Positions 19,063 to 43,499 of a DNA stretch of 64,000 nt are shown here, piece after piece. Positions within the stretch are counted from its first letter, which is position 1. Each line of letters opens with the position of its first letter. A model generated the notes under the pieces. The model worked only from the letters and a program-made list of their open reading frames with translations, was not told where the DNA came from and made no database searches. The DNA lies in NCBI GenBank assembly GCA_022340425.1, contig JAJDNY010000135.1, forward strand, positions 2,806-66,805. The letters run 5' to 3'. The DNA comes from Desulfobacteraceae bacterium. Its GTDB lineage: Bacteria > Desulfobacterota > Desulfobacteria > Desulfobacterales > JAABRJ01. The position numbers and the translations under genes were made by a program.

Positions 19063-20073
19063 TTAACGATCACCTTGCCGCAGCCAGGCGGCCAGCCGCT
19101 CCAGGCCCTCTGCGGTGGAGACCCGCGGCGCGTAGCCCAGGTCGCGGCGCGCGGCGCTGATGTCAAACCAGTGGGCGGTGGCCAGCTCGCGGGCCACAAA
19201 GCGGGTCATGGGCGGCTCCTGCGGGATTCGTAAAAGCCGGTAGACGCCCTCCAGCAGGGCGCCGCTCAGCCAGGCCAGCCCGGCCGGAACCCTGCGGTGG
19301 ACCGGCGGTTTGCCGCCCGCGGCCAGAATGGCGTCGATCATCTCCCAGAGGGGAATGGGTGCGCCCTGGCTGATGAAGTAGACCCTGCCCGAGAGCCCTG
19401 GTTCGGCGGTCAGGCGGTCGGCGGCCAGCAGGTGCGCCTCGGCGGCGTTGTCGATATAGATCGTGTCCACGCGGTTTCGCCCCCCGCCGACCCGTCTGAG
19501 GCGCCCGGCGCGGGCGAGGATGCGGGAGACCAGATGGGGGTCGCCCGGTCCCCAGATCAGGTGCGGGCGCAGGATGATGGCGGCGAGGCCCTGGCGCGCG
19601 GCCCGGATCACCAGCCTTTCGGCCAGGGCCTTGGTGCGCGGGTAGGCGGCGTGATAGCGCCCGGGGTAGGGCACCGATTCGTCCACCCCCTCCATGTCGC
19701 CCCCGTGAAACACGACGCTGGGGGAGCTGGTATGGATCAGAGCGCCCACCTCCTGCCGCCGGCAGGCGGCAATCACGTTGGCCGTGCCGATGACGTTGGT
19801 GCGGTGGTAGTCCGCGTAGGGGCCCCAGACACCCGCGCGGGCGGCGGTGTGAAAGACCACCTCTCGGCCGCGGCAGGCGGCGTCCACCGCCGCCGGGTCG
19901 GCCAGGTCGCCCAGCAGCTGGTCCACCCCCAGGGCCACCAGCTCCGGCTTGGGGTGGCGTGCAAAGCTGGCCACCCGGTCGCCGCGGGCCAGCAATCGGC
20001 GAACGATGGCGCTTCCCAGAAACCCGCCGCCGCCGGTCACCAGGATCCGTCTGCCCGATCGATCAGGGGGCAT
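19063..20073 (-). CDS. oleD: OleD, NAD(P)H-dependent 2-alkyl-3-ketoalkanoate reductase (3beta-HSD/epimerase family)
   Basis: ILVTGGGGFLGSAIV Rossmann motif and 336 aa. Last gene of the ole operon; overlaps oleC by 11 nt. Confidence 0.8.
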   Translation of the reverse strand: MPPDRSGRRILVTGGGGFLGSAIVRRLLARGDRVASFARHPKPELVALGVDQLLGDLADPAAVDAACRGREVVFHTAARAGVWGPYADYHRTNVIGTANVIAACRRQEVGALIHTSSPSVVFHGGDMEGVDESVPYPGRYHAAYPRTKALAERLVIRAARQGLAAIILRPHLIWGPGDPHLVSRILARAGRLRRVGGGRNRVDTIYIDNAAEAHLLAADRLTAEPGLSGRVYFISQGAPIPLWEMIDAILAAGGKPPVHRRVPAGLAWLSGALLEGVYRLLRIPQEPPMTRFVARELATAHWFDISAARRDLGYAPRVSTAEGLERLAAWLRQGDR

Positions 20074-21781
20074 CGGGGTCTCCCGCGTCTGTCTTGCCGG
20101 GCGGCCCCGAGACCACCTGCCGCTCGGCCCAGCGGGCCAGCTGCTCCCGGAAAATTTTGGAATTGTGGCGGATGTCCACCGGAAAAGCGGGGTGAAAGAG
20201 GATGGTTTCGATCTTGTGTGTCAGGGGCGTCTCGCATGCCAGCGCCAGCAGCTCCCGGCGCAGCGCCTCGCGGTCGGCCTGCCGGGAGGTCTTTTCAAGC
20301 TCGATGCAGATCACCGGGGTCTGCTGACCGCGGGGACCCACCCCCACCAAAGCGCTGCGGAAGACGGCGGGGTGCCGGTTGAAGATCGCCTCGCAGGGAA
20401 TGGTGAAAAGGGTTTCGTCGGGGGTGATCACCCGCTGGCTCTTGCGCCCGCAAAACCAAACCCGGCCCTTGGTATCCATCCAGCCCAGGTCTCCCATGCG
20501 GTGCCAGAAACCTTCCCCATCGGCGATTTTGGCCAGCGCGTCGGCTTCCGGGCGCTGGAAGTAGTGGCGGGTGACCAGGTCCCCCGTGACGGTGATCTCG
20601 CCGATATCCCCTTGGGGCACGACCCGCGCGTCGGACCACGCCCCGATGGGGTCGTCGCTGATTTCGATGATGGCCACCCTGAGCCCCTCCAGGGGCCGCC
20701 CAACGCAGGTGCCGAAACCCTTTTCGCTGAGGTGGCGGGTTTCGCTGAGGATCTCGCTGCTGCCGATGGAGATGACCGGCACGGCCTCGGTGGCGCCGTA
20801 GGGGGTGTGGATCTCGGCCTCCCCGCAGAGCATCCCCGCAAACCGTTTGATGTTGTCCGGCAGCACCGGTGCGCCGGCCGAGACCACGCGCCGGAGGCTC
20901 GGCAGGCGCAGGCCGCGGCGGGCTCCGTAGCGTCCAACGCGGTTGAGCAGCGCCGGCGAGGCGAACATGTTGGTGACCCCGTGGTTTTCGATGGCCTCCA
21001 GGATCCGCACGGGGTTCACCGCCGCCGGCCGAGTGGGGTCCATGTCGGGGATGACCGCCGTCATGCCCAGGGCGGGGTCGAAAAGAGCGAAGAGCGGAAA
21101 GGTCGGCAGGTCGATTTCGTCGGGGGCGATCTGAAAATGGGCCTGGATGTGCCGGATCTGGGCGTCGAAAACGCCGTGGGTGTAGACCACGCCCTTGGCC
21201 GGACCGGTGCTGCCGGTGGTGAACAGGATCGCGGCGGCTTCATCGGCGATCGTGCCGGCCGGGGGGTAGGCCTGCCACGGGCGCCGCAGCAGATGCAGCA
21301 GGGTGGGGCCGCCCCAGCACCAGCGGGGGCCCACTGTCACCCAGGTGCGCAGGGTTCGGAAAAAACGGGGGTAGAAAAGCCTCAAAAGATGGGCTTTGGA
21401 GATCCCCACGAACGCCTCGGGGCGGCTTTCTCCAAGGCACTCCAGCATCCGCTGGAGCCCCATGCCGGGGTCGACCACGACCGGAACGGCGCCCACCTTG
21501 AAAAGGGCGAAGCTCAGCAGAAAAAACTCGGGCCCTGGCTTGACCATCAGCACGGTGCGCACGCCGCGGGTGATCCCCGCGGCCTCCAGCCCGTTGGCAA
21601 TGCGTGCGGATTCGCGCTCCAGCTGGGCGAAGGTCAGGTGCGCGTAAGTCACCCGGCCGTATGCGTCGCGGCCGGCGGGATACACCACGGCCCGCTTGTA
21701 GGGCTGGCTGCGGGCCGTGCGTCTGAGGTGGCCGGCGACGTTGACGGGGTCAGGGCCGGCGGTCGGGGCGTTTAGATCCAT
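20063..21781 (-). CDS. oleC: OleC, AMP-dependent ligase family beta-lactone synthetase
   Basis: 572-aa adenylate-forming enzyme (ILFTTGSTGPAKGV, GDLGWMD motifs) in ole gene context. Confidence 0.8.
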   Translation of the reverse strand: MDLNAPTAGPDPVNVAGHLRRTARSQPYKRAVVYPAGRDAYGRVTYAHLTFAQLERESARIANGLEAAGITRGVRTVLMVKPGPEFFLLSFALFKVGAVPVVVDPGMGLQRMLECLGESRPEAFVGISKAHLLRLFYPRFFRTLRTWVTVGPRWCWGGPTLLHLLRRPWQAYPPAGTIADEAAAILFTTGSTGPAKGVVYTHGVFDAQIRHIQAHFQIAPDEIDLPTFPLFALFDPALGMTAVIPDMDPTRPAAVNPVRILEAIENHGVTNMFASPALLNRVGRYGARRGLRLPSLRRVVSAGAPVLPDNIKRFAGMLCGEAEIHTPYGATEAVPVISIGSSEILSETRHLSEKGFGTCVGRPLEGLRVAIIEISDDPIGAWSDARVVPQGDIGEITVTGDLVTRHYFQRPEADALAKIADGEGFWHRMGDLGWMDTKGRVWFCGRKSQRVITPDETLFTIPCEAIFNRHPAVFRSALVGVGPRGQQTPVICIELEKTSRQADREALRRELLALACETPLTHKIETILFHPAFPVDIRHNSKIFREQLARWAERQVVSGPPGKTDAGDPDAP

Positions 21782-21817
21782 GGCGGATAATGGTTGCTAA
21801 CCAGATTGAGGCATCGG

Positions 21818-22351
21818 TCATTTCAAAAAACGGGCCTTGAGTTTGGCGATCACCCCGCGGGGCTCCGGCGGCGGCCTTCGCGCCGCAAGCCCAGCCGACG
21901 CGGCCAGGGCCGTCTGCAGGTCGGCGACCATGCGCTGCTGCTGGGAGGCGATGGCCGCAAGCCCGTTTTCGCGGTTCACCAGAAAGCCAACATAGAGGGC
22001 CTGGAGCTGCTTTTCAAGTGCGCTCACGGTCTTTCGCAGCTCCCGGTCGGTTTTGACCCAGAGGCTGCGCTCGGCGGCGACGATGTTTTTCTGGTCGGGA
22101 AAGTCGGCCTCGATTTCATCCAGGCGTTTGAGCTCCCGCTCGATGAGTTCCAGCGCGCCCTCCAGGCGCAGCATCTCGGTGTAAAGGCCCGGGAGTCTTT
22201 CCCGACCGAAGGCCGCCACCTCCGGTTTGAGGGCGAGCTGCCGGAACTGGTCGGGGGGTGGCGCCCCGCTTTTCAGGACAAAAAGCGCCAGCGCCGCACC
22301 GCCCCCGGCCAGCAGGGCCAGGAGCAAAAAGATCACGATTCGTTTCTTCAA
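21818..22351 (-). CDS. Hypothetical membrane-anchored coiled-coil protein embedded in the ole operon
   Basis: 177 aa. TTG start preceded by GGGAG. N-terminal TM helix (IVIFLLLALLAGGGAALALFVL) followed by a helical, heptad-like region. I recognise no family. Confidence 0.5.
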   Translation of the reverse strand: MKKRIVIFLLLALLAGGGAALALFVLKSGAPPPDQFRQLALKPEVAAFGRERLPGLYTEMLRLEGALELIERELKRLDEIEADFPDQKNIVAAERSLWVKTDRELRKTVSALEKQLQALYVGFLVNRENGLAAIASQQQRMVADLQTALAASAGLAARRPPPEPRGVIAKLKARFLK

Positions 22352-22413
22352 AACTCATCTCCCGCAAAAGATTCCTGCCCTCCACGGCCGATTCTGGCGG
22401 CCGCAGACGGGCC

Positions 22414-23337
22414 TCAGGACGGGGTGGCAGTCAGAAAGGCCCTGATGCGCGCCAGGACCCGTTCGGGTTCGTCCTCCAGCAGGTAATGCCCGGCGCGTTC
22501 GAAAATCTCCACCCGGGCCGCCGGAAAGCGGCGGCGCCATTCGGCCAGGTAGTCGCCGTCGAAGACGAAATCGTGCCGCCCCCAGAGCAGCAGTATGGGT
22601 ACTGCAGCCAGAAGCGGCAGGCGCGCGGAAACCGAAGCGACCAGGGCATAGCTGGGGTCGCGGGGGCCAAGCGGAATGTCCTGGACAAATTTGAGGGTCG
22701 CGACGCGGTTGGCCGGGGTGTTGTAGGGGGCGATCAGCCCGGCGCGCACATCGGTCGTCAGGCCCCGGCGCGAGGCCATCAGCAGGGCAGCACGGGCGAA
22801 CAGGTTGAGCCCCAGGACCAGGGGCGGCGCCAGCCGAGGCATGTCGCGAATCAGCCGCAGCCGCAGCGGCAGCCGCTTGCCGTTGGGCGGCAAGAAGGCC
22901 GCCGTGTTGAGCAGCACCAGGCGCCGGATCCGCTCGGGGTGCGCGACGGCGTAGGCCATGCCGATCATGCCGCCCCAATCGTGGAGCACCAGGGTCAGGG
23001 GGCCGTTTAATCCCAACTGGTCCAGCAGCGCTTCCAGATCCGAAACCCGGCTGGCCAGGCGGTAGTCGTAGCGCCCGTCTTCGGGCTTGTCCGAAAAGCC
23101 GCAGCCGATATGGTCCGGCACGACCACCCGGTAGCGTCCGGAAAGGCCCTTGACCAGCGCCCGGTAGTAGAAGGACCAGGTGGGGTTGCCGTGGAGCATC
23201 ACGATTGGCTCGCCGTCGCCTTCGTCCAGGTAGTGGCAGGTGAACTTTCCCACCCGCAGATAGCGGGATCTGAACGGGTAGAGCCGGCGGAAGGCCGGTG
23301 TGGCCACGAATGCCGAATAGGGCCGGGCGGCGGTCAC
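22414..23337 (-). CDS. oleB: OleB, alpha/beta-hydrolase (haloalkane-dehalogenase-like) beta-lactone decarboxylase
   Basis: HGNPTWSFYYR and PDHIGCGFSDKP motifs and 307 aa. Located between oleA and oleC. Confidence 0.8.
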   Translation of the reverse strand: MTAARPYSAFVATPAFRRLYPFRSRYLRVGKFTCHYLDEGDGEPIVMLHGNPTWSFYYRALVKGLSGRYRVVVPDHIGCGFSDKPEDGRYDYRLASRVSDLEALLDQLGLNGPLTLVLHDWGGMIGMAYAVAHPERIRRLVLLNTAAFLPPNGKRLPLRLRLIRDMPRLAPPLVLGLNLFARAALLMASRRGLTTDVRAGLIAPYNTPANRVATLKFVQDIPLGPRDPSYALVASVSARLPLLAAVPILLLWGRHDFVFDGDYLAEWRRRFPAARVEIFERAGHYLLEDEPERVLARIRAFLTATPS

Positions 23338-23392
23338 GGTGCCTCCTCGGGGGCGGGCTGCAGGCCGGTGCGGCTCGCTGGGGTTCGCCGAC

Positions 23393-24433
23393 CTACCATC
23401 GCACCCCCAGCATCAGGCAGTTGAGGCCGCTGCCGATTCCCAGAAACCCCACCAGGTCGTTGGGCTGAAGAAACTCGCGCTCCGAGGCGATGGCCGCCGT
23501 GATCGGCAGCGACACGGTGCCGACATTGCCCAGATACTGGAAGGTGGTGAAATCCTTTTCCTCGGAAACGCCGATGGCGTTTAGGATCGTGCGCTGGTGG
23601 GTGGCGCCGACCTGGTGGCAAATGACCTTGTCGGGTTTGTCGAAGGGCCACGATAGCTCACGCTTGAAGGCCTTGTAGGTGGCGATCCCCAAACCGACGC
23701 CATTTTCCAGGACCCCGATGGAGTCGGTCTCCATGATGTGGGCGCAACTGGCCGGGATGCCGGTGTCCGGCCCCCAGCAGCAGAGGTGGTGGTGCTCGGT
23801 GGCGCTGCGGATGACCCCCCCCAGCAGCCGGTGGCCGCGGTTGGCCAGCGAGCCGGCGGTCAAGAGCACCGCCACGGCCCCGGAACCGCCGGTCAGGGTG
23901 GCAACGCTTTTCTTGAAAAGCGCCATGTCGGGACGCGCCAGCAGACGCCGGATGGTGATGTCGACGATCTGGCGGGCCGATTCGGAGGAGACCACCAGAC
24001 CGGCCCTGATCTGCCCCAGCTCGATGGCGTTGGCCACCTGGAGCATGCCGTTGAGGACCCCCAGGCAGGCGTTGGAGAGATCGTAGACCAGTGTTTCGCC
24101 GCTCAGCCCAAGCCCGTGGGCGACGGCGCAGGCCGTGGCCGGCTCCAGGTTGTCGCGGCACACCCCCCCGTAGACCAGCATGCCGATCTCCCCCGGGTCG
24201 ATCCCGGAGGCGTCCAGCGCCTTTTGCCCGGCACGCGTCGCGCCGTCGCAGTTTTTGTAACCGTCCTCCCAGTAGCGCCGCTCGTGGATGCCGGTCAGGG
24301 CTTCCAACTGCCCGGGCTTGAAGTGCAGCCGCTCGTAGAGAGCCATCAGGCGCTCCTCGAGGTCCGCCGAGGTGACCACCAGGGGGGCCAGCTCATAGCC
24401 GAATGAATCGATATATACGTTTGTGTATCGCAT
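23393..24433 (-). CDS. oleA: OleA, thiolase-superfamily acyl-CoA head-to-head Claisen condensing enzyme
   Basis: 346 aa, colinear with my recollection of Xanthomonas OleA. Active-site DLSNACLGVLNGM, RSATEHHHLC, HQVGATH, and the C-terminal LGIGSGLNCLMLGVRW. Confidence 0.85.
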   Translation of the reverse strand: MRYTNVYIDSFGYELAPLVVTSADLEERLMALYERLHFKPGQLEALTGIHERRYWEDGYKNCDGATRAGQKALDASGIDPGEIGMLVYGGVCRDNLEPATACAVAHGLGLSGETLVYDLSNACLGVLNGMLQVANAIELGQIRAGLVVSSESARQIVDITIRRLLARPDMALFKKSVATLTGGSGAVAVLLTAGSLANRGHRLLGGVIRSATEHHHLCCWGPDTGIPASCAHIMETDSIGVLENGVGLGIATYKAFKRELSWPFDKPDKVICHQVGATHQRTILNAIGVSEEKDFTTFQYLGNVGTVSLPITAAIASEREFLQPNDLVGFLGIGSGLNCLMLGVRW

Positions 24434-24651
24434 CGTGTCTCACGTAGGTCGGAATCGCGGACAGCAACAGGCGCTCAACCCAAGGGGGTTTTGTCCGGGT
24501 AACGGCGTCCGCGCTCCTGCACAATTTGGGGTTGCAATGCGGCCGTCGACCGGTCCGGCCGAAGCCCGCCTACCGCAGGCGCTGCCGGCCGATGGCGCCG
24601 ATGCCTCAAGATAGGGCCTCGCACCCCGAAGCTCAAGGGCCAGGTCTGTTT

Positions 24652-27600
24652 TCAGCGCGGTCTCAGCTGCAGCCTGAAACCCTCCATCTTGTAGATGTAA
24701 AGGCCGTCCACCTGAAGGTAGCCGTCCGCCTGGAGTGCGGGGGCGGGGCCTTCGGAGACGGCGGTGACAAACGCCTCCACCATCACCTGGCGGCTGGTGG
24801 GAATGATCTGCCCCCGGTAGGTCCAGCGGTGGGACGCGGGGGCCGCCAGGGCGAAGCGGTGGGTGTCGCAGAGTTCCTTCCAGCGCCGGCGGGCCGCGAA
24901 TTTCAGCAGCTGGAGAAACGATTCGATCCCCAGCGATCCCGGGCAGACCGGGTCCTGATAGAAGTGGGCCTTGAAGAACCACTCGTCGGGATCCACCGTC
25001 TTGCTGCCGCGCACGTAGCCCAACCCCCGCGGGCCGCCCTCGGGCAGGAAGATGTCGATGCGGTCGATCATCCGCAGCGCCCGGGCCGGCATGGCCAGGC
25101 CCGCCGGCGGGCTGCTGTGGGGGTCGTCCGGCGTCAGCGGCCGGGCGTCCGCCAGAAGGCGCCCCCCCGCCGGGTCTGCAGCGTCGGGCGCCCCGGACGG
25201 CGGGCTTTCCCGCAGGCCTACCTGTTTGGCCAGGGCGCTGCGGGTGAAAAAACCGAAGGCGGTGTCCCCCTCGTAGACCATGGCGCCCCCGGTGAGGACC
25301 TGGAAGTCAAAGTTCTCGATGATGATGTCGCCGGCCTTGGCCACCTTGGTCAGCCGGGCGCGCATGGTGAGGGTGCCGCTTTGCGTGGAGACCTCGCGCT
25401 GCAGCCGGGCGTTGCCGCCCAGGTTGCGGAATTGGAGGTCATGGGGGCTTTTGAGGGCCGAGCCGGCGTAGGCCGCCAGCCAGCCGCAGGGCTGGAGGGC
25501 GATTTCCAGCAGCACGCAAAAGGGCATCCGGCCGTTGCGCTCCGCCCGGAAATACCACGCCTCGGGCGGAATATCGTAGGCGGCTTCGATCCAGCCGCCC
25601 GGCGCCAGCTGCCAGGGGGGCGGCTCGGCGGCCGTGATACGATCCATGAAGCAGTAGGGCGGGCCCGGCAGGCGGGCGATGAAGCGCTCATGGTCAAAGA
25701 CCCGGTAGGGTTCCCCGAAGGCCTCCGACGGGTTGCCGACGCAGAAGGCCAGCAGCTGGTCGCGGGAGAAGAGAACCGGCCGGTCCTCGGTCGGCGCAGC
25801 CGGCAGGGCGTTCGCCGGCGATGCAAGACGGCGCCGGGATTCCCACAAGCTCTCCAATTCCGTTCGGGTGGTGCCGCTGAGCTGCAGGCTGAGCCCCTGG
25901 AAGGCGACGATGCGGCGGCCGTCGGCGTACATCAGTGCGTCGGCCACGGCATAGGGGGCCGGGTTGTAGCCGATTTCGCGCAGGGCGACCTCGTAGACCA
26001 CCTGCCGCGTGGCGGGGGTCACCGGCCCGCGGCACTTGAGCACGGCCTCCACGCCCGTTACCGGCTCGTAGGCCGCCCCGTCCTTGGCCGTCACCCAGCC
26101 CAGCCGCTGCAGCAGCACCCTTAGGGCATGACCGCAGCACTCGTACATCAGGGTGCCCGGCATGACCCGGTCGTCCACGAAGTGGCAGGTGAGAAACCAG
26201 TCGTCCGGATGGATGTCGGCCTGGGCGCGGATGCTGCCCAGGCCGAAGCGCCCGCCGGCGGGGTCGAGCTCCAGGACCCGGTCGATGAGATGCATCCGCC
26301 CCCCCGGCAGGCGCAGCGCCGGGGCGAGGTCAAGCCCGTCGAAGGCCGGTCCGAAGCAGGCCGAAAGATCGCCGCCGCGCAGGGCCTCCAGTTGGCCGTC
26401 GTCGTATTTTTCCTTGGCCAGGGGCGCCAGCGGCGACCAGTCTGCCGGGCGTTTGCCGGCTGCCGGGCGGGTGTCGGATTCGGTCAGAATGATCCCGCCG
26501 GAATTTTGGACTTCGGATTCGGTGAAAAAGCCGGCGCAGCCATCGCGCATGCTGATGAGGTGCGCGTCGCCGATCCAGCCTTCGAAGTGGAAGAAGAACA
26601 TCCAGGTTTCCCGCTGGCGCACGAAGCGGTCGATGGCGATCTCGTAGCGGATCACGTCCCCCGGCCGCGGCAGGCCGCGGTGAAAGCGCACCTTGGCGTC
26701 CAGCAGACGATAGGCGCGCTGGCCTCTGACGGCCAGGTCGATTCCCAGGTAAGAGCACAGAAAGAGGTCTGCCTGGCCCGCCTCCACCGCGATGCACACC
26801 GGGGCACGGTCGCCGTCCAGATACCAGGCGCCGGGCAGGACGTCGTGCTCGGTCACCACGCGGCCGGGGCCCAGGGAGCCCTTCTCGCCGCTCACCGACA
26901 CGATCCGGTCCACCAGCATCAGGGGCTCGTCGGGCAGGCGCACCCGCACCCGGTAGCCGTCAACCTCGGCAAATTCCGGCCCCAGCACGCGGGCCACGGA
27001 GCCCACGGCGAACTCCATGCACATCTCGCGGGAGTAGGCCGGCGGCGGTGCTGAAGGCCGGGGAGTGGTGGCCGCCGTCGGCGCGACCGGCTTTTCCGCG
27101 CCGGCCAGCTCCGCCAGCAGCCGGGTCTGGAGGTCGAAGGCGCGGGCGAAGCCCTGCTGGGACTGATCGGCGAAATCCAGGAAGCGCCGGTGGGCCTCGG
27201 CGGTGGCCTCGACGGCCGCGTCCAGGGGGCCCAACAGGTCGCTGAAGCGGCCTGGGGCGGTAGCGGCGGGGTGGGGGGGAGGTGCTGAAGCCGGGGCTGG
27301 CGCTGCGGTAGCAGCAGGGGGCGCCGTCGGCCGGGGTGGCGGCCCGCCGAGGGGGACCGTCACCGTCCGTGCAAAAACCGGTGGCGGCGCGGTTTCAGGT
27401 GTAGCGCCGCGGCTTCCGTATAGGAAATCCAGGCTCATGGGTAACCGATGGGTCCAGAGGTGTCCCAACAGCTTCAGCACGGTCAGCGGTTCGTCCTCGC
27501 CGCGGACCGAGGCCGAGACGGCCAGGTGGGGGCGATCGATCAGGATGCGCCCGATCATGCGGCTGCACGACGCCTGGGGGCCCATCTCCACAAAGATCCG

Positions 27601-30600
27601 CAGACCGTCGGCGTAAGCCTGCTCGACGGTGGCGGTGAAATCGAACCCGTGCAGGGCCTGGGCGAGGATCGCATCGGCGGCGCTGGCGGCGCTGAGCTCG
27701 TAAGCCCTGCCCGCCGCGCAGCTGTAAAACCGGATGCCGGGCGGGGCGGTGGTGGGGAAAAGGTGCAGCTCGCGGTAAGCCTGGCGCACCGGCTGGGCCG
27801 CATCGGAGTGGACCGTGACCACCCCGTCCAGGAAAAAAGCGTTGCAGCCCAGCTCGGCGATGACCGCCTGCAGCGCCTGGGCGTCGCCGCCGATGACGCA
27901 TTCCTCGGGGGTGTTGACGATCAGCAGGCGGGTGTGCCGGTGGCGGGCGATGGCCGGGCGGACGGCGTCGGCCGCCCGGTCCACGACGGCCACGGTCCAG
28001 GTGAAGGGCTGGTCGGCGGAGATCCCCCAGGCTTGCCGGGCGGCGCGGCAGGGCCCGGCCAGCTGGGTGCTGAAAAGATCGGTGGCGGCCATGCGCGCGA
28101 GCATCTGCCCGCGATCCGGCCATGCGCCCAGGGCGAAAAGCGCCGCCGATTCACCGAGGCTGTAGCCGATGGCGGCGTCAGGGGCGGGCATGAATCGGCG
28201 CACGAGATTGGTCATCAGACCGCCGTGCACCACCTGGCCGAAAATGGGTTTCAGCGGGTCTGCAGCAAGCTGCGCCAGGGCCGCCTTTTCCCAACCGGGA
28301 CCCCAGGCGCTGCGGCGGGGTAGGATGGCGTCGGGCAGCATCTGGGATTTCAAATGGGCGGTGGCGGCGTCCATGCGCCGCAGCACCTCGGGCCAACGCA
28401 CGCCGATGGCGCGGCCCATGCCCAGGAAATGATTGCCGCTGCCGGGGTAGACAAAGGCCACCTGTCCACCGGGGCCCAGCGGCGCCGGGGTGAAGCAGAC
28501 GCCCTCAGGGCCGTTTAAGCGAACGGCGGCGCCCTCCCGGACGGCGCCGCGGGCCTCGCGAATCCAGTGCTTTAGGCGCTCGCGGCTCCCGGCGATGATC
28601 GCCACCCCCAGTGCTGCGGCGCCCTCCGGTGCTGCGCTGCGGTGCCAGCTGCGGGCGAGAGACGCGATCGCGGCGGCCGGTCCCTGCTGCTTTAGGTGGC
28701 GCTCCAGGCGCTCCAGTCCGGCGGTGAGGCCGTCGCGGTCGCTGGCGCTGACACAAAAAAGCCCGTAGGGCAGCTCGCCTGCCGGATGAGGGCGCTGCCG
28801 GTGCGTTTTTTGGTGGCCAGTTGCGGCCGGCGCCGCTTCGACCCCCTCCAGCAGGACGTGCATGCAGCCGCCCGCTGAGGTCATGGCCGCGGCCACGGCC
28901 CGCCGCGGGCCCTCGCAGCGGTTGCGCACCCAGTACTGGGCGGAGGCCGGAAAATGAAACGGCCCCCCATGCCAACGGTCGTCGGACGGCTCGTTGAGGC
29001 CGGGCAGGGGCGGAATCATTTCGTGGTGCAGGCAAAGGGCGGTTTTGACCACCCCGGCGAGACCCGCGGCCGCTCCGCTGTGTCCGACGATCGGTTTCAG
29101 GCTGCCCACCGCGCAGGAGGCGGGGGGCGCCCCTTGAGCGGGCTGCGAAAAGACGGACTGCAGCGCGGCGCACTCCACGCGGTCCTCGGCCGGGTCGCCG
29201 CTGCCGTGGGCTTCCAGATAGCTGACAGCGGCGGCCGGGGTGCCGCCATCGCCCAGGGCACGCTCCAGGGAGAGGCGGTAGGCGGCGCTGCTGGCAAGGC
29301 CGGTGGCAATACTTCCCCCATCGGCGGCGCCGATACCGGCCACCGCCGCGTAGACCCGGTTCCCGTCGGCAACGGCCTGATCCAGGCGTTTGAGCACCAG
29401 CGCCACCGCCCCTTCGCCGGGCAGGGTGCCCTGGGCCCGGCGCTCGAAGGGCCGCACCCCGGCGCCGGTTCCCAGCGCCCGGATGCCGTGGCGTGCGGTC
29501 AGGTTGCGGACATCGGCGGTGATGTCCACGGCCCCCACCAGAACGGCGTCCAGCTCGCCCCGCTGCAGGGCGCGCACCCCGATTTCAAGGGCCCGCATGC
29601 CGGCCGCGGCTTCCGCCGATACGGTGAACGTCGGGCCCCCCAAGCGGTACTCGCGGGCGATCCGGCTGGCGACGATCCCCCCCAGGGCCCCCAGGGTGCG
29701 CACCGCGGTCAGCGGCGGGCCGCAGGCGTCGGCGAGCGCGGCCCGCCACTGGGCCAGGGCCCGGGGGTCGAGGCCGAGGCGGTAGCGGTCGTTCCACGCG
29801 GCGGCGGCCTGCAACAGGCGCCAGCGGAGGTGAAAGTCGGTGGCCGCGAAGTCGAACTCCACCCCGATCACGGCGCCCATGCGCGGCCGTTCCGGGCGGC
29901 CCTGGAAGCCGGCGGCCAGCATGGCGCCGGCGGCGGCCTTGAGCATCAGGAGCTGCTGGGGCAGGAGGTCGGCGATTTCGTTGGGGGCGATGTGGAACTC
30001 TCCGACCCCCACCGACAGGTCCGCCAGAAAAGCCCCCCGGGCGCCGGTCTCGCCGAGGAGGCCTGCGGCCGCGGTCTCAGCCCCCCGCCAGCGCTGGGAC
30101 GGTCTGGGGCCGATGGCCGGGCTGCCGCTGAAAACGGCTTCCTGAAAGGCCTGCAAGCCTTCCAGAGGTCCCAAAAAGGTTTGCATGCCGATGATGGCCG
30201 CAGCCGGCCGCGCCGGGGCCTCCACCGAGGGGGCGCTGGGGGCGGGCGGGGGCACGGCCGGGTCGGGGTCGGTGAACTCCTCCAGCAGCAGGTGGGCGTT
30301 GATGCCGCCGAAGCCGAAAGCGCTCACCGCCGCCCGACGGGGCTTTCCGGCGGCGCGGGGCTCCCAGTCGGCGGGCTGCGTTTGAACCCGGAAGGGGCCG
30401 TCCAATAGCGGGCTTCCGGCCGGTGGGACGCTGAAGTGCAGCGAGGGCGGTAGGGTGCGGTGCTGCAGGGCCAAGAGGGTTTTGATGGCCCCGGCGGCCC
30501 CGGCCGCGGTGAGCAGATGGCCGATCATCGATTTGACCGAGCCGATGGCACACTGCTGCGGCTGCCAGGTCAGCCCATCCCAGAGAGACGCCAGGCTGCG

Positions 30601-31614
30601 AATCTCGGTGGCATCCCCCACGGGGGTGCCGGCGCCGTGGCACTCGATCAGGTCCACCGCATCCGGCGACCAGCCGGCGGTCGCGTAGGCCCCCTGCATG
30701 GCCCGCAGCTGGCCCTCGCTGGCAGGCGCCAGGAGGCTGCCGTCGATGTCGTTGGAAAGGCCGATGCCCCGGATCACGGCGTGAATCCGGTCGCCATGGG
30801 TCAGGGCGTCCGCCAGGCGCTTCAACACCAGGATGCCGGCGCCCTCTCCCACCACCAGACCGTCGGCGCTGCGGTCGAAGGGGGCGCAGCGGCCCGAGGG
30901 TGAAAGCGCCCGCAGCTGGCTGAAGCCCACCTGGGTGTAGAGACAGTCCGGGCGCGATACGCCCCCGGCCAGGATGGCGTCCGCGCGATGCGCCTGAAGG
31001 GCGTCGCAGGCCAGTTTGAGGGCGAAAAGCGACGAGGCGCAAGCCGCATCCAGGGTGTAGCTGCCGCCGCCGAGGTTGAGCGCCCGGGCCAGAAGGGCGG
31101 CCGGCAGGCCCGCCACCTGGCCGGCCAGGCAGGCATGGCGGTCGATGGCGGCCGGCGTCGACGGCTGTTTGAAAAGCCGGTTTTCCAAGGGACGGCCGAA
31201 TAGCTCCCAGCTGATCTGGGAGGCGGCCTCGCTGGGAAGGACGATGGCGGCCAGAATGGTGCCGATGCGCTCCCGGTCGAGAGGCGCGTGGCGGCATTGG
31301 GCAAAGGCATCGCGGCCGGCGGTGAGCACCAGGTGGTAGAGGGGGTCAAGGGCCGCCAGCAGGTCGGTATCCAGGTCCAGGCCGGCGGGGTCCAGCGGCA
31401 GGGGGTCCACCAGACAGGCGCGGCCGGTAAGGGCCCGGTCCGGCTGGGGCTTCTGGCTGACCATGACCTCCGGGGGCGCGGCCCAGCGCCCCGGCGGGAC
31501 CTCGCGGCAGGTGTCCGCCTTGCCGCGGACATTCCTCCAGAAGGTCTCCACGTCGGGCGCGCCGGGGAAAACGGCGGCGAACGCCACCACGGCGATTGGG
31601 GGGGGAGGTGTCAT
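24652..31614 (-). CDS. PfaC-like polyunsaturated-fatty-acid-synthase-type PKS (KS - CLF - AT - 2x [pseudo-DH + FabA-type DH])
   Basis: 2320 aa.
- KS: DAACASS, CHGAGTPVGD, KSMIGH.
- CLF: second KS-like domain lacking the Cys (VSAEAAAG).
- AT: GYSLGES.
- Pro/Ala-rich linker.
- Two FabA-type DH domains (HFVDDRVMPGTL and HFYQDPVCPGSLG).
I saw no ACP (no DSL-type motif), KR or ER region. Confidence 0.9.
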   Translation of the reverse strand: MTPPPPIAVVAFAAVFPGAPDVETFWRNVRGKADTCREVPPGRWAAPPEVMVSQKPQPDRALTGRACLVDPLPLDPAGLDLDTDLLAALDPLYHLVLTAGRDAFAQCRHAPLDRERIGTILAAIVLPSEAASQISWELFGRPLENRLFKQPSTPAAIDRHACLAGQVAGLPAALLARALNLGGGSYTLDAACASSLFALKLACDALQAHRADAILAGGVSRPDCLYTQVGFSQLRALSPSGRCAPFDRSADGLVVGEGAGILVLKRLADALTHGDRIHAVIRGIGLSNDIDGSLLAPASEGQLRAMQGAYATAGWSPDAVDLIECHGAGTPVGDATEIRSLASLWDGLTWQPQQCAIGSVKSMIGHLLTAAGAAGAIKTLLALQHRTLPPSLHFSVPPAGSPLLDGPFRVQTQPADWEPRAAGKPRRAAVSAFGFGGINAHLLLEEFTDPDPAVPPPAPSAPSVEAPARPAAAIIGMQTFLGPLEGLQAFQEAVFSGSPAIGPRPSQRWRGAETAAAGLLGETGARGAFLADLSVGVGEFHIAPNEIADLLPQQLLMLKAAAGAMLAAGFQGRPERPRMGAVIGVEFDFAATDFHLRWRLLQAAAAWNDRYRLGLDPRALAQWRAALADACGPPLTAVRTLGALGGIVASRIAREYRLGGPTFTVSAEAAAGMRALEIGVRALQRGELDAVLVGAVDITADVRNLTARHGIRALGTGAGVRPFERRAQGTLPGEGAVALVLKRLDQAVADGNRVYAAVAGIGAADGGSIATGLASSAAYRLSLERALGDGGTPAAAVSYLEAHGSGDPAEDRVECAALQSVFSQPAQGAPPASCAVGSLKPIVGHSGAAAGLAGVVKTALCLHHEMIPPLPGLNEPSDDRWHGGPFHFPASAQYWVRNRCEGPRRAVAAAMTSAGGCMHVLLEGVEAAPAATGHQKTHRQRPHPAGELPYGLFCVSASDRDGLTAGLERLERHLKQQGPAAAIASLARSWHRSAAPEGAAALGVAIIAGSRERLKHWIREARGAVREGAAVRLNGPEGVCFTPAPLGPGGQVAFVYPGSGNHFLGMGRAIGVRWPEVLRRMDAATAHLKSQMLPDAILPRRSAWGPGWEKAALAQLAADPLKPIFGQVVHGGLMTNLVRRFMPAPDAAIGYSLGESAALFALGAWPDRGQMLARMAATDLFSTQLAGPCRAARQAWGISADQPFTWTVAVVDRAADAVRPAIARHRHTRLLIVNTPEECVIGGDAQALQAVIAELGCNAFFLDGVVTVHSDAAQPVRQAYRELHLFPTTAPPGIRFYSCAAGRAYELSAASAADAILAQALHGFDFTATVEQAYADGLRIFVEMGPQASCSRMIGRILIDRPHLAVSASVRGEDEPLTVLKLLGHLWTHRLPMSLDFLYGSRGATPETAPPPVFARTVTVPLGGPPPRPTAPPAATAAPAPASAPPPHPAATAPGRFSDLLGPLDAAVEATAEAHRRFLDFADQSQQGFARAFDLQTRLLAELAGAEKPVAPTAATTPRPSAPPPAYSREMCMEFAVGSVARVLGPEFAEVDGYRVRVRLPDEPLMLVDRIVSVSGEKGSLGPGRVVTEHDVLPGAWYLDGDRAPVCIAVEAGQADLFLCSYLGIDLAVRGQRAYRLLDAKVRFHRGLPRPGDVIRYEIAIDRFVRQRETWMFFFHFEGWIGDAHLISMRDGCAGFFTESEVQNSGGIILTESDTRPAAGKRPADWSPLAPLAKEKYDDGQLEALRGGDLSACFGPAFDGLDLAPALRLPGGRMHLIDRVLELDPAGGRFGLGSIRAQADIHPDDWFLTCHFVDDRVMPGTLMYECCGHALRVLLQRLGWVTAKDGAAYEPVTGVEAVLKCRGPVTPATRQVVYEVALREIGYNPAPYAVADALMYADGRRIVAFQGLSLQLSGTTRTELESLWESRRRLASPANALPAAPTEDRPVLFSRDQLLAFCVGNPSEAFGEPYRVFDHERFIARLPGPPYCFMDRITAAEPPPWQLAPGGWIEAAYDIPPEAWYFRAERNGRMPFCVLLEIALQPCGWLAAYAGSALKSPHDLQFRNLGGNARLQREVSTQSGTLTMRARLTKVAKAGDIIIENFDFQVLTGGAMVYEGDTAFGFFTRSALAKQVGLRESPPSGAPDAADPAGGRLLADARPLTPDDPHSSPPAGLAMPARALRMIDRIDIFLPEGGPRGLGYVRGSKTVDPDEWFFKAHFYQDPVCPGSLGIESFLQLLKFAARRRWKELCDTHRFALAAPASHRWTYRGQIIPTSRQVMVEAFVTAVSEGPAPALQADGYLQVDGLYIYKMEGFRLQLRPR

Positions 31615-31790
31615 GGGGGGTACGAACTTCCTTATCTTTTTTCTGGGGCTTCGGACCAGCGCGGCGCGAATGGTATACCGAAGTCATCGGGGCTTGGCAA
31701 GGCTTGATGAACCACGGGTGCGCGCATCCCGCCGCCGCCGGCCCGGGTGCTGGTAAGGCGAAAAATCGCCTTCAGGGAGCCTGCGCGGTC

Positions 31791-31819
31791 TTGACACCTG
31801 GGTGGAATTGCCCTAAATT
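31791..31819 (+). promoter_or_regulatory. Sigma-70-type promoter candidate for the nifX-like cluster
   Basis: TTGACA (31791-31796), 17-nt spacer, TAAATT (31814-31819), about 95 nt upstream of the ATG at 31915. Confidence 0.4.
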
Positions 31820-31833
31820 CGGCCCGTTGATGT

Positions 31834-31851
31834 GGGGCGGCGCGCCGCCCC
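31834..31851. repeat. Perfect 18-bp GC palindrome GGGGCGGCGCGCCGCCCC
   Basis: Read directly. It lies between the candidate promoter and the nifX-like start codon, so it could be an operator or a 5'-UTR hairpin. Confidence 0.5.
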
Positions 31852-31914
31852 GCAGCCATTTGGCCCCGCGGTTAAATATCCGGCGGGTGCTTTCCAAACG
31901 CAGGAGAAACCACC

Positions 31915-32295
31915 ATGCGTATCGCCTTTCCCAGCCAGGAGGACCGCGGGTTCGACAGCCCGGTTTACGGCCACTTCGGCTCCGCCCATTACTTTATCGT
32001 CGTTGAGAGCGACAGCGGCAGCTGCGAAACCATCGTCAACCCCGACCGCGACCATCTCCATGGCCACTGCCAGCCGCTCAGCGCCTTCACGGGCACCCCG
32101 CTGGATGCCGTCGTGGTGGGCGGGATCGGCGGCGGCGCCCTGCGCCAACTGAACGCCGCCGGTGTTCAGGCCTACCGTGCGGTTGAGGGCACGGTGGCCG
32201 AAAACCTGGCCTTGATCCGGGCCGAACGCCTGCCGACCTTCACCCCGGCGCACACCTGCGCCGGGCACAGCCGGGACGGTGCCTGCAGCCACTGA
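31915..32295 (+). CDS. NifB/NifX-family (dinitrogenase Fe-Mo cofactor biosynthesis domain) small protein
   Basis: 126 aa. MRIAFPSQ...VYGHFGSAHYFIVVE...AVVVGGIGGGALRQLNAAGVQAY fits the NifX/NifB C-terminal-domain fold family. C-terminal Cys/His tail HTCAGHSRDGACSH. Confidence 0.8.
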   Translation: MRIAFPSQEDRGFDSPVYGHFGSAHYFIVVESDSGSCETIVNPDRDHLHGHCQPLSAFTGTPLDAVVVGGIGGGALRQLNAAGVQAYRAVEGTVAENLALIRAERLPTFTPAHTCAGHSRDGACSH

Positions 32296-33908: not shown

Positions 33909-36900
33909 TCAGGAGGCCTCTGCAGGCAGGCTGCGCAGCCGCTCCAGGGCCTTGTCGTATTCGTAGGCCGCGATACTCGCCGCCAGCTCGGCGGCCAGCT
34001 CGGCCGGCAGATAGGCGCGCGCGGCGGCGAAGCGCGGCGGGATGGTTTCGGGGTCCGCCAGTTGGAGCGCCTCGGCCAGCCCGTCCAATTTCGCCTGCCG
34101 TTCGGCCGGGTCGGCCGCCGGGCCTTCGCCGCCGGCCGCCGCCGGCGCCGGTGAGATGGTGGCGATTCCGGCCAACACCTCGGCCAGGTGCGTACCCACG
34201 GTGTCCGTGAGGGCCGAAAGGGTCACCGGGTCCGGCGTCTGGCCGGCCGCCAGGGTTTTCTCCAACTCGCGTGCGGCTGTGGAGAGCCGGGTTGCACCGA
34301 TATTGGCGGCGCTGCCCTTGATGCTGTGGGCCAGTTGGCGCAGGGCGTCGTGGTCGCCGCCCGCCCGCAGGTCCTCCAGGGCGGCGGCCGTTGCGGCATT
34401 GTGCTCGGCAAAGCCGATCAGGATCCGGCGGAAGGTGGCCGGGTCGATGCTGAGGGTCTCCAGGGTCTTGCGGACCTCGATCCCCGGCAGGCTGTCGGGC
34501 AGCGGGCCGGCTGAGGGCGGGGGCGCGGCGGCGCTCGCATCCGGCGCCGGGACGGGTTTCGGCAGCGGGCAGGCGAGCTGTGTGGCGGGCCGTTTGATGG
34601 TGCGCCAGAGGGTGTGAAAGAGGCGGTCCTGATTGATGGGTTTGGAGACGTAGCCGTCCATCCCGGCTGCCAGACATTTTTCCTCGTCGCCTTTCATGGC
34701 GTGGGCGGTCATGGCGATGATCGGGATCTGCCCCACGGCGGGGATCGCGCGGATCGCGCGGGTGGCTTCGAAGCCGTCCATTTCGGGCATCTGGATGTCC
34801 ATCAGAACGGCCTCGAAAGCGCCGGCCTGAACCGCATCGACCGCTTCGCGGCCGTTGGCGGCGGTTTCCACCTGGATGCCGGCGGATTCCAGAACCGCGG
34901 TTGCGATCTCGCGGTTGGTGGGGTTGTCCTCGGCCAGAAGGACCCGAAAGCCCCGCAGGCGCTCTTTGTAGATGGAGGCCCGGGTGGTGAAGCGGGTGCG
35001 CGTGGTTTCGCTTTTGGCGGCGGTTTTGCCGAAGGCGTCCATCACCGCGTTGAACAGCTCCGACTGGTAGATGGGCTTGGCCAGAAAACCGTTGATGCCC
35101 TCCCGCTGGGCCGCGTTGCGGACGCTCTGGTCCTCGAAGGCGGTCATCAGGATGATGACGGTATCGCGCTTGAGGTCGCGGCGGATGCGTCGGGCGGCGG
35201 CGATGCCATCCATCCCGGGCATCTTCCAGTCCATCAGGACCAGGTCGAAGGGTCCTTCAGCGCCCGGCTCAGCCCCGAGGCGCTCCAGGGCCTCCTCGGC
35301 CGAGTCCGCGGTTTGGACCGCAAACCCGAAGCTCTCCAGCATCTTCTGCATGATCACGAGGCTGTCGTTGCAGTCGTCCACCACCAGCACGTTGAGTCCC
35401 TGGATGTCGGCCGGCGGCACGAACTTCGGCGGTGGCGGGCCGGCGCAGCGTTCGAAGCCGGCGGTGAAATAAAACGTGCTGCCCTTGCCCAGCTCGCTTT
35501 CCACCCAGATGGTGCCGCCCATCATCTGCACCAGCTGCTTGCAGATCGCAAGTCCCAGGCCGGTGCCCTGGTATTTGCGGGTGGAGGAAGCGTCGGCCTG
35601 ACTGAAGGACTGAAACAGCAGCGGCAGGTACTCCGGTGCGATCCCGATGCCCGTGTCCTTGACGAAAAACTTCAGAAAAACCCGCTCTTCGGTGGTTTCC
35701 GCCGGAACCAGACCCACCAGGATCACGCCGCCTTTGTCGGTGAACTTGACGGAGTTGCTGACTAGGTTGGTGAGGATCTGCTGCAGGCGCAGGGGATCGC
35801 CCACCAGCGTCCTGGGAACACCGGGGTCGATATCCACCAAAAGTTCGATCCGGTTCTCGGCCACCTTGTTGTGGAAGACGTCCACCACGTTGTCCAGGAT
35901 CTCGTCCAGCATGAAGGGGCGGGCTTCCAGGGCCATTTTTTCGGCCTCGATCTTGGAAAAATCCAGGATGTCGTTGATGATCCCCAGCAGGGAATAGGCG
36001 GAGGTGTGGATGATTTCGAGGTAGTGGGCGGCCCGTTCGGGCAGTTTTTCGCTCAGGGCCAGCTCGGCGGCCGCAATCACGCCGTTCATGGGGGTACGGA
36101 TCTCGTGGCTCATATTGGCCAGAAACTCGCTCTTGGCGCGGGTGGCGGCCTCGGCCTGGTCCCGGGCCTGGATCAGGCGTTTCTCCACCAGGCGCCGCTC
36201 GCCGACTTCGGCCTCCAGGCGGAAGTGCGAGGTCTTCAGCCGCCGGTTGAGCTTCATAATGGTCACGGTGAAGCCCGCCAGGATCAGAAAGCCGGCGGCG
36301 ATCAACTCCAGCCAGTACCAGTATTTTTTGAGCACGTCGGCAAAAGTGATCTTGCCCAGGTCCCGGTAAGGCCCGATCTTAAGCTCCCGCAGGAGATCGT
36401 GGACGTCCTGGTAGTTCAGCGGGATGGTCCAGCCGGCGTAGCGCCCGGCAACGGCCGCCGGGTTGTCGAGCGTGATCTGGAGCAGGGCGATGGCAACGGC
36501 CACGCCCAGTTCATCGGAGGTTCGGCCCATTTTGGCGATCGGCCACTCCGGGTACAGGCGGGTGGAGGCGACAAAGGGCAGGTTCTCGTGGGTGACCCCG
36601 TCCACGGGAATGATAAAAAAGTCATCGAGATCGATCTTGTTTTCGGTCTGCATCCGCTCCAGGGTGTCGGTGCGCACCGTGCCGGCGTCGCTCAATCCGT
36701 CGCGCACCGCCAGCACAACGGCGTCGTGGGTGCCGGCAAAGTGGAAGTTCTTCAAATCCCGCCGGGGGTCGATGCCGCGGGCGGCCAACTCGCGCCAGGC
36801 CGCGTGCCAGCCCCCCAGGGAGTGCTCCTCCACCGCCATGAAGGACTTGCCCTTGAGGTCTTCCAGGCGTCGGATGTCGCTGCGCTCCTGGCGGGTGAAA

Positions 36901-37283
36901 ATCACGCCACCGTATCGGGTGAAGCTTCTGCCGGCATGAAGATTCTTGAGGGTGGCGATCCGCATGGCGCCGTATTCGATTTCCAGATCGACGTAAACCG
37001 AGGGGTTGCAGATGATAAAATTAAGCGGCTCCAGACGGAAGGGATCGAAAATCTGATCGTACTCCAGCGGGACGATGACAAACCGTTTGCCGGGTATTTG
37101 GCTGGAGAGGTAGTCCGCAGTGGGGGACCATTTTTCCAAGCAGCGATCGACGCCGCGTTTGGCCAGCACGCCGATCAGGACCTGCTGCGGGGTCTCTTCG
37201 CCGCGGGCGCCTGGAGCCGAAACAAATGTCGCTGCCAGAAGGAGAAAACCGATGAGGAGGGTTGTGCAACGCCGTCTGTTCAT
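33909..37283 (-). CDS. Hybrid sensor histidine kinase (periplasmic PhnD-like binding domain, TM, HisKA, HATPase_c, 2x REC, Hpt)
   Basis: Signal peptide plus a periplasmic PBP-like domain. H-box FLANMSHEIRTPMNG. Two receiver domains (VLVVDDC..., VLLAEDNPTN...). C-terminal Hpt (LAHSIKGSAANIGA). Confidence 0.85.
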   Translation of the reverse strand: MNRRRCTTLLIGFLLLAATFVSAPGARGEETPQQVLIGVLAKRGVDRCLEKWSPTADYLSSQIPGKRFVIVPLEYDQIFDPFRLEPLNFIICNPSVYVDLEIEYGAMRIATLKNLHAGRSFTRYGGVIFTRQERSDIRRLEDLKGKSFMAVEEHSLGGWHAAWRELAARGIDPRRDLKNFHFAGTHDAVVLAVRDGLSDAGTVRTDTLERMQTENKIDLDDFFIIPVDGVTHENLPFVASTRLYPEWPIAKMGRTSDELGVAVAIALLQITLDNPAAVAGRYAGWTIPLNYQDVHDLLRELKIGPYRDLGKITFADVLKKYWYWLELIAAGFLILAGFTVTIMKLNRRLKTSHFRLEAEVGERRLVEKRLIQARDQAEAATRAKSEFLANMSHEIRTPMNGVIAAAELALSEKLPERAAHYLEIIHTSAYSLLGIINDILDFSKIEAEKMALEARPFMLDEILDNVVDVFHNKVAENRIELLVDIDPGVPRTLVGDPLRLQQILTNLVSNSVKFTDKGGVILVGLVPAETTEERVFLKFFVKDTGIGIAPEYLPLLFQSFSQADASSTRKYQGTGLGLAICKQLVQMMGGTIWVESELGKGSTFYFTAGFERCAGPPPPKFVPPADIQGLNVLVVDDCNDSLVIMQKMLESFGFAVQTADSAEEALERLGAEPGAEGPFDLVLMDWKMPGMDGIAAARRIRRDLKRDTVIILMTAFEDQSVRNAAQREGINGFLAKPIYQSELFNAVMDAFGKTAAKSETTRTRFTTRASIYKERLRGFRVLLAEDNPTNREIATAVLESAGIQVETAANGREAVDAVQAGAFEAVLMDIQMPEMDGFEATRAIRAIPAVGQIPIIAMTAHAMKGDEEKCLAAGMDGYVSKPINQDRLFHTLWRTIKRPATQLACPLPKPVPAPDASAAAPPPSAGPLPDSLPGIEVRKTLETLSIDPATFRRILIGFAEHNAATAAALEDLRAGGDHDALRQLAHSIKGSAANIGATRLSTAARELEKTLAAGQTPDPVTLSALTDTVGTHLAEVLAGIATISPAPAAAGGEGPAADPAERQAKLDGLAEALQLADPETIPPRFAAARAYLPAELAAELAASIAAYEYDKALERLRSLPAEAS

Positions 37284-43145: not shown

Positions 43146-43147
43146 GG

Positions 43148-43493: not shown

Positions 43494-43499
43494 CACAAC

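Follow-up and report, generated by a model that had tools for sequence, protein, structure and literature searches.

Genes and protein domains of the pfaBC-ole locus

We analysed a stretch of 64,000 nucleotides (nt) from a Desulfobacteraceae bacterium (assembly GCA_022340425.1, contig JAJDNY010000135.1, positions 2,806 to 66,805), hereafter called the window, in which a gene of a Pfa-type polyunsaturated fatty acid (PUFA) synthase lies next to the ole genes for head-to-head hydrocarbon synthesis. The listing of open reading frames (ORFs) places six minus-strand genes at 19063-31614, namely pfaBC, oleA, oleB, the gene of a 177-aa protein that we call U177, oleC and oleD, with exactly the coordinates that a preliminary description of this DNA had given for six co-directional genes. 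Based on our data, these six genes probably constitute a module for polyunsaturated long-chain olefins, which belongs to the known pfa-ole kind and shows a split layout with pfaBC as the only synthase gene beside ole. The features of the locus are as follows (KS, ketosynthase; CLF, chain-length factor; AT, acyltransferase; DH, dehydratase):

24652..31614, minus strand: pfaBC-like gene, 2320 aa, PfaB-PfaC fusion of the order KS-CLF-AT-(pseudoDH-DH)x2 (Pfam and NCBIfam scans, motifs)
30250..31599, minus strand: KS domain, residues 6-455 (ketoacyl-synt, Ketoacyl-synt_C, KAsynt_C_assoc; active-site Cys)
29002..30198, minus strand: CLF domain, residues 473-871 (second pair of ketoacyl-synt and Ketoacyl-synt_C, without active-site Cys)
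27424..28533, minus strand: PfaB-type acyltransferase, residues about 1028-1397 (TIGR02816, weak Acyl_transf_1, GYSLGE)
24685..26937, minus strand: two FabA-type dehydratase/isomerase domains with a pseudo-DH before each, residues 1560-2310 (FabA stretches, His motifs)
24434..24651, minus strand: spacer of 218 nt between pfaBC and oleA (terminator scan, folding, alignment)
24608..24636, minus strand: promoter-like element TTGAGC-17 nt-TATCTT, conserved, 16-44 nt after the pfaBC stop codon
23393..24433, minus strand: oleA, 346 aa, predicted head-to-head acyl condensing thiolase (PRK09258, Xanthomonas OleA structures, residues)
22414..23337, minus strand: oleB, 307 aa, alpha/beta hydrolase, predicted beta-lactone decarboxylase (homology and context)
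21818..22351, minus strand: U177, 177 aa, bitopic membrane protein that contains a helical bundle (AlphaFold; Pfam and NCBIfam without match)
20063..21781, minus strand: oleC, 572 aa, by homology and context an AMP-dependent beta-lactone synthetase (PRK09274, NF045786, NF045785)
19063..20073, minus strand: oleD, 336 aa, by homology and context an NAD(P)H-dependent 2-alkyl-3-oxoalkanoate reductase (NF042422, NF042423)

Apart from the long spacer behind pfaBC, the genes are separated by 55 nt (oleA-oleB), 62 nt (oleB-U177) and 36 nt (U177-oleC), whereas oleC and oleD share 11 nt. A domain scan of all six proteins with Pfam and NCBIfam confirmed the gene identities proposed earlier and left the 177-aa protein without a match.

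The large synthase protein unites parts of two Pfa subunits, and the architecture KS-CLF-AT-DH2 has been termed "pfaBC fusion" (Shulse & Allen 2011). On the PfaC side, it contains the KS-CLF didomain and two FabA-type DH domains: the KS carries its Cys in the motif DAACASS at residue 189, which in the CLF is replaced by SAEAAAG at 666, while the dehydratase region comprises four FabA stretches (35 and 122 bits, followed by 35 and 120 bits) with the catalytic His motifs CHFVDD at 1810 and AHFYQD at 2216. The closest solved structure is the KS-CLF protein "ORF10" (6RIW), which matches residues 7-863 with 394 bits. On the PfaB side, the acyltransferase shows the serine motif GYSLGE at 1150; its match to the PfaB family TIGR02816 reaches 102.5 bits and thereby stays below the cut-off of 144.3, and the Acyl_transf_1 match is weak. 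Full-length identity to orthologs in 80 species amounts to 43-58%. Hence the earlier label "PfaC-like polyketide synthase (PKS)" is right concerning the KS-CLF and DH domains, but the protein is a fusion of PfaB and PfaC rather than PfaC alone. Neither Pfam nor NCBIfam scans found a domain for an acyl carrier protein (ACP), a ketoreductase (KR), an enoyl reductase (ER) or a malonyl-CoA:ACP acyltransferase (MAT) in PfaBC, and a GxDS motif for an ACP is missing as well. Therefore, the protein cannot build a chain alone and represents one subunit of a Pfa-type synthase. This corrects the idea that the PKS by itself makes the unsaturated acyl chain, all the more since pfaA, pfaD and pfaE are absent from the 64 kb.

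For the Ole proteins, the central question is whether the condensing enzyme belongs to OleA or to the related FabH/KAS III enzymes, and the answer is clearly in favour of OleA. Besides the thiolase/KAS III fold found in the domain scan, the protein matches NCBIfam PRK09258 with 476 bits (cut-off 285) and FabH TIGR00747 with 68 bits. Structures of Xanthomonas campestris OleA (3ROW, 3S21, 4KTI and others) align over the full length with 198-202 bits (E about 1e-58), and the best FabH-type structure reaches 69 bits. In addition, Glu97, Cys123, His273 and Asn303 align to Glu117, Cys143, His285 and Asn315 of the X. campestris enzyme. We take Cys, His and Asn to be the catalytic residues of the latter and Glu117 to be its OleA-specific base. 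With 202 versus at most 69 bits and the catalytic residues conserved, the protein groups with OleA, as suspected before, and is by its sequence a true OleA, predicted to act as a thiolase that joins two long acyl chains in a non-decarboxylative Claisen condensation. Its gene adjoins oleB, oleC and oleD, and this order recurs in 40+ related loci.

OleB matches Abhydrolase_1 (119 bits) and, below their cut-offs, haloalkane dehalogenase models (139-169 bits); none of its NCBIfam matches is a model named after OleB, and the position of the gene is kept in 40+ loci. It carries the motif HDWGG at 119-123, in which Asp120 is presumably the nucleophile after strand 5. Because OleB is intact with this motif, the beta-lactone that had been considered as an alternative end product is unlikely and was rejected. 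OleC is an AMP-binding protein that passes PRK09274 (750 bits, cut-off 478), whereas it reaches 637 and 597 bits with the "olefin beta-lactone synthetase" equivalogs NF045786 and NF045785, whose cut-offs are 900 and 850; its identity to the gene in oleC position of related clusters is 52-70%. OleD belongs to the 3beta-HSD/SDR proteins and matches NF042422 (412 bits) and NF042423 (389 bits), both with a cut-off of 580, followed at a distance by HpnA (142 bits). Taken together, the four Ole proteins share 47-75% identity with the genes at the same positions of dozens of related clusters.

The preliminary description had named a terminator between the PKS and ole as an argument against a common pathway. 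We found no terminator-like site in the 218-nt spacer, and its fold is no more stable than that of shuffled sequence (z = +0.9), so that both a terminator and a structured RNA were rejected. In an alignment with three relatives, the ends of the spacer are conserved and its middle is variable and, in the relative L001, deleted. The conserved 5' end contains the promoter-like element at 24608-24636, both hexamers of which are kept in four relatives with otherwise divergent spacers, with TATATT in L167. As it fits 8 of 12 consensus positions and the scan threshold was 9, the scan did not list it, and it is due to its conservation that we consider it a possible internal promoter of the ole genes. 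Read-through from pfaBC combined with such a promoter would give the simplest picture of expression, and pfaBC and ole are presumably co-expressed.

Linkage of pfaBC and ole and the proposed split synthase

To place the locus in a broader context, Pfa and Ole genes were mapped on the loci of 80 species-representative PfaBC relatives, 63 of which offer at least 1.3 kb of sequence 3' of pfaBC. In 48 of these 63 informative loci, ole genes follow pfaBC directly: oleA comes first in 41, oleB-oleC-oleD without oleA in seven, and the remaining 15 have no ole gene at this place. In the seven loci beginning with oleB (L011, L019, L020, L021, L024, L057, L081), oleA is missing from the cluster. The ole-linked loci come from Desulfobacterales, Geobacterales, Desulfuromonadales and one metagenome-assembled genome (MAG) of the Myxococcota, and in the Geobacter type only a few nucleotides separate pfaBC and oleA (in L025, pfaBC ends at 16581 and oleA starts at 16584). 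The adjacency of pfaBC and ole is thus not due to chance, and its conservation across several orders argues for a functional link between the Pfa-type synthase and the Ole proteins. Such a synteny search for PfaC-like genes beside oleA had been suggested in the earlier reading of the locus. Of the dedicated pathway from PKS to polyunsaturated hydrocarbon that it had proposed, the gene identities and the adjacency have stood up; a PKS that is complete on its own has not.

Several observations weigh against the olefin module proposed here. OleC and OleD do not reach the curated cut-offs that NCBIfam sets for its narrow equivalogs, although these are their best specific matches. With the conserved promoter-like motif in the spacer, expression of ole independent of pfaBC may occur as well. 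In related taxa, ole clusters without pfaBC exist (L002 from Desulfonema magnum, and L173), and the 15 loci mentioned above contain pfaBC without ole; since each occurs without the other, the link is not obligatory. Finally, none of pfaA, pfaD and pfaE lies in the 64-kb window, so that they would have to be supplied from elsewhere in the same genome. The motif and the separate occurrences could also mean that the neighbours are functionally independent. OleABCD would then use acyl-CoA or acyl-ACP of the fatty acid synthase (FAS) of type II, as in Xanthomonas, to form C27-C31 olefins with few double bonds, and PfaBC would serve a separate secondary-lipid or PUFA pathway. We regard this explanation as improbable: the adjacency has been kept in 48 of 63 loci from several orders, often with gaps of a few nucleotides, the OleA of Shewanella exclusively uses a Pfa-derived 16:4 chain despite the presence of a type II FAS (PMC6463001), and Geobacter bemidjiensis, which has a linked cluster, makes C31:9.

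The missing subunits deserve a closer look. A tblastn search of the 64-kb window with Geobacter-type PfaA matched only the KS domains of PfaBC, and pfaD and pfaE gave no match. Accordingly, the Type I/K arrangement, with pfaD-pfaA upstream of pfaBC and pfaE after oleD, is absent at this locus. Where the sequence upstream of pfaBC can be read, 24 of the ole-linked loci have pfaD and pfaA there, in many cases with a pfaE behind oleD, and include the full Geobacter-type tandem order pfaD-pfaA-pfaBC-oleABCD-pfaE; 16 others lack pfaA over 6 kb or more and thereby share the split layout of the window, which is also found in its close relatives L001, L167 and L170. The counterpart was seen when metagenomes were scanned with a PfaA profile centred on Desulfobacterales (L083-L162) and only loci with sufficient flank were counted: of the 32 loci that extend 2.5 kb or more past pfaA, 19 have pfaD-pfaA without a pfaBC behind it. 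Two-gene pfaD-pfaA loci resembling "Type J" are therefore common and not a one-off partial cluster.

How recently both halves may have parted company is illustrated by L095 (9890-10978), where pfaD-pfaA is followed after a 3-kb gap by a pfaBC whose DNA shares 90-94% identity with the pfaBC of L014 and L005 (L003 was also compared). As the 10 kb upstream of pfaBC in L014 contain no pfaA, near-identical pfaBC genes occur with and without pfaA nearby, and by this sequence comparison rearrangement appears to have parted and joined the two halves of the synthase within short evolutionary times. For the window, we infer that PfaA, PfaD and PfaE are supplied in trans from another locus. None of the window's own proteins had an exact match on record, and a PfaA protein database search returned relatives with 53-60% identity, many of them "partial" and none on a contig tied to a split-layout locus. 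Most database PfaA relatives are "partial" entries on short contigs, which biases any synteny census of pfaA. These entries probably reflect assembly breaks in the tandem ACP repeats, and with so many of them the absence of pfaA from short contigs means little. An attempt to unite the pfaBC-ole contigs of an Olavius symbiont (L163-166) with pfaD...pfaA contigs (L123, L125, L146) as one genome was given up, as there is no sequence overlap and the GC content is only roughly similar.

A different explanation for the lone pfaBC gene would be that PfaBC works without PfaA, extending and cis-desaturating acyl-ACPs of the type II FAS (AcpP, FabG, FabI) for OleA. It would account for the lack of pfaA and pfaD within 64 kb here and within at least 6 kb upstream in 16 other species-level loci, and for a pfaBC ORF that is intact with all catalytic motifs present. 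We nevertheless consider it very unlikely, because pfaD-pfaA loci without pfaBC are as common as described and the near-identical pfaBC genes with and without pfaA point to rearrangement rather than loss. Moreover, we know of no PfaC that uses a discrete ACP. Still less credible, in our opinion, is a pfaBC that has been left over, in decay, from a formerly complete pfa-ole cluster and contributes nothing to any product. The absence of the partner genes from the window would fit, and in the speculation of Yoshida et al., remnants are to be found among the pfa genes of anaerobes. Decay is difficult to reconcile with an uninterrupted ORF of 6963 nt that has kept all active-site motifs, with the full-length identity shared across the 80 species, and with the recurrence of the same layout in relatives whose neighbouring ole genes show a synonymous divergence (dS) of 0.2-0.5.

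The membrane protein U177 and the flanking genes

The gene between oleB and oleC distinguishes the window from the better-known clusters. An exhaustive HMMER search assigned 123 cluster representatives to the U177 family, 86 of them at E <= 1e-10, with lengths of 170-250 aa and full-length matches of 25-39% identity. Their alignment shows i) a basic N-terminus, ii) a single hydrophobic helix and iii) the conserved motifs LKPE..F...LP.LY, RL...E..FP.QK.IV, YV...VN.E.G and, C-terminal, RLK....LK.KF. In the AlphaFold model (pLDDT 87), a linker connects a transmembrane helix (2-28) to a helical bundle (43-157), behind which a short helix ends the chain; a Foldseek comparison of this model with the PDB gave nothing specific (best match E = 0.24). 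Because the N-termini are strongly basic, the positive-inside rule suggests an N-in, C-out topology that would place the helical domain in the periplasm. Between the window and L001, L167 and L170, the dN/dS of U177 is 0.20-0.31, compared with 0.04-0.34 for the ole genes. An artefactual, lineage-specific ORF was ruled out by the 86 clusters, the dN/dS of 0.2-0.3 and the kept position. In L170, the divergence from the window is uneven, as oleA and the spacer are nearly identical (dS 0.10) while oleB (dS 0.33) and U177 (dS 0.52) are not, and this mosaic suggests recombination inside the operon.

Relatives of U177 (abbreviated U) were found in the following contexts:

L167, L170 (P0370, P0372; 74-75% identity to U177): pfaBC-oleA-oleB-U-oleC-oleD
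L174-L176, three NCBI MAGs (P0128; 33%): same six-gene order as in the window
L173 (P0147; 39%): oleA-oleB-U-oleC-oleD, RND efflux genes upstream, no pfaBC within 8 kb
L171 (P0124; 37%): U directly before (5' of) the gene of an OleC ortholog with 63% identity, neither oleA nor oleB in the vicinity
L172, contig of 947 nt (P0126; 38%): U, then the N-terminus of OleC
L177, contig of 1.2 kb (P0157): downstream gene on the opposite strand, context uninformative

Wherever the downstream gene of a relative was readable, it is oleC, which the U177 homolog directly precedes whether or not pfaBC is present, and none of the 80 species-level PfaBC loci contains a homolog. For this reason, U177 is, as judged from gene order, a recurrent minority accessory of ole clusters that is tied to oleC and not to pfaBC. 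In L173 (45-5765), oleA is directly preceded on its own strand by a three-gene RND efflux system (membrane fusion protein, RND pump and outer-membrane factor). Other lineages have inserts at the oleB-oleC junction too, but these are small ORFs unrelated to U177. In the Geobacter-type loci L040 (18131-18726) and L043 (18831-20069), the junction holds pairs of ORFs of ~95 and ~104 aa, which by eye resemble antitoxin/toxin modules. The junction therefore seems to tolerate insertions (U177, L040, L043, L055, L080). Published work speaks of "oleABCD clusters with 0 to 3 intermediate genes" of unexplained significance (Smith et al. 2020, PMC7064751). The oleABCD cluster of X. campestris likewise has extra genes between the ole genes (Smith et al. 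2020); these carry PF13784 and PF03692, whereas U177 is a membrane-anchored helical protein outside all Pfam families.

On both sides, the flanking genes run in the other direction, which makes the six genes a discrete co-directional block. Gene direction switches 5' of pfaBC, where small genes with Nitro_FeMo-Co, NifU_N and Zn-ribbon domains (assigned via the 95%-identical relative L001) lie on the opposite strand, and beyond oleD there is a CAP-domain gene, again on the opposite strand. Farther upstream, two very large hybrid histidine kinases of 1124 and 1714 aa are encoded, with an HD-domain response regulator between them. The three genes occupy positions 33909-43496 of the minus strand; the sensor domain of the 1124-aa kinase resembles phosphonate-binding proteins, and the 1714-aa kinase has PAS. 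The G+C content of the PKS gene is 68-73%, compared with about 62-65% in most flanks and 53-61% in parts of the window (window 24000-32000).

Proposed pathway and relation to known systems

In the olefin module that we propose, the KS-CLF pair for elongation and the PfaB-type acyltransferase would come from the PfaB-PfaC fusion, whose two FabA-type dehydratase/isomerases would introduce the cis double bonds, and the fusion would cooperate with PfaA (KS-MAT-ACPn-KR-DH), the enoyl reductase PfaD and the phosphopantetheinyl transferase PfaE, all encoded elsewhere. OleA would take over a polyunsaturated acyl intermediate and join two chains head to head to a 2-alkyl-3-ketoacid, which OleD would reduce. 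Ring closure to the beta-lactone would be carried out by OleC with the use of ATP, and OleB would decarboxylate the beta-lactone to a cis-olefin, probably a polyene of the C31:9 type. U177 may act as an accessory inner-membrane protein coupled to oleC. By analogy, a C31:9-type polyene is the likely product, since G. bemidjiensis with its tandem cluster makes hentriacontanonaene.

The closest known system is indeed that of G. bemidjiensis, a strict anaerobe with pfaD, A, B, C, oleA, B, C, D and pfaE in tandem that produces C31:9 (Yoshida et al. 2016; PMC3098273, PMC4882568). The "Type I" cluster of strain Bem shares with the window a pfaBC fusion (KS-CLF-AT-DH2) directly upstream of oleA-oleB-oleC-oleD and a strictly anaerobic host from the Desulfobacterota, and identities to Geobacter-type loci are 46-49% for PfaBC and 52-60% for the Ole proteins. 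In contrast, the window has no pfaD, pfaA or pfaE in the cluster or elsewhere in its 64 kb, a pfaBC-oleA gap of 218 instead of a few nucleotides, and the additional gene U177 between oleB and oleC. With Shewanella oneidensis MR-1, the similarity lies in the proposed chemistry, in which a polyunsaturated Pfa chain passes via OleA to OleD, OleC and OleB: in Shewanella, Pfa is required for C31:9 and OleA links both pathways, with 16:4n-3 as intermediate (PMC6463001). The genomic organization differs, as MR-1 has separate PfaB and PfaC and keeps all pfa genes together and away from ole, whereas in the window only the PfaBC gene accompanies ole. Photobacterium profundum SS9 also has adjacent pfa and ole operons (Allemann et al. 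2019, PMC6463001). There, a whole pfaA-D operon is involved and the hot-dog thioesterase gene pfaT lies between the operons, whereas no gene is found between pfaBC and oleA in the window, and SS9 produced no detectable polyunsaturated hydrocarbon (PMC6463001). Finally, "Type J" of Planctomyces limnophilus, with pfaD-pfaA only (Shulse & Allen 2011), appears as a mirror image, as it holds subunits that are missing here.

In consequence, the novelty that the preliminary description had seen in the contiguity of pfa and ole does not persist, since such contiguity is already published (PMC3098273, PMC4882568, PMC6463001). The general arrangement is known, and the proposed function is unaffected by this loss of novelty. 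For two features, the split layout with pfaBC alone beside ole and the U177 family, we found no description in the literature. They give rise to two tentative proposals, which we consider rather unlikely. U177, with its helical domain in the periplasm and its gene always directly 5' of oleC, would be a fifth component of some Ole pathways that is needed to place or move the hydrocarbon, or to anchor the Ole assembly, at the membrane. In the split layout, the ole-linked PfaBC would act as a switch: controlled by the ole locus, it would direct a PfaA/PfaD core from another locus towards hydrocarbon precursors for good.

Concerning its main claim, our analysis extends the published association of pfa and Ole in anaerobes to a high-GC lineage of the Desulfobacterales and adds little beyond that. 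The split layout is common in Desulfobacterales, and surveys anchored on pfaA would miss both halves or mislabel them as "partial" clusters. The U177 family, which is well conserved and occurs in several lineages, provides a candidate for the unexplained handling of very hydrophobic products at the membrane.

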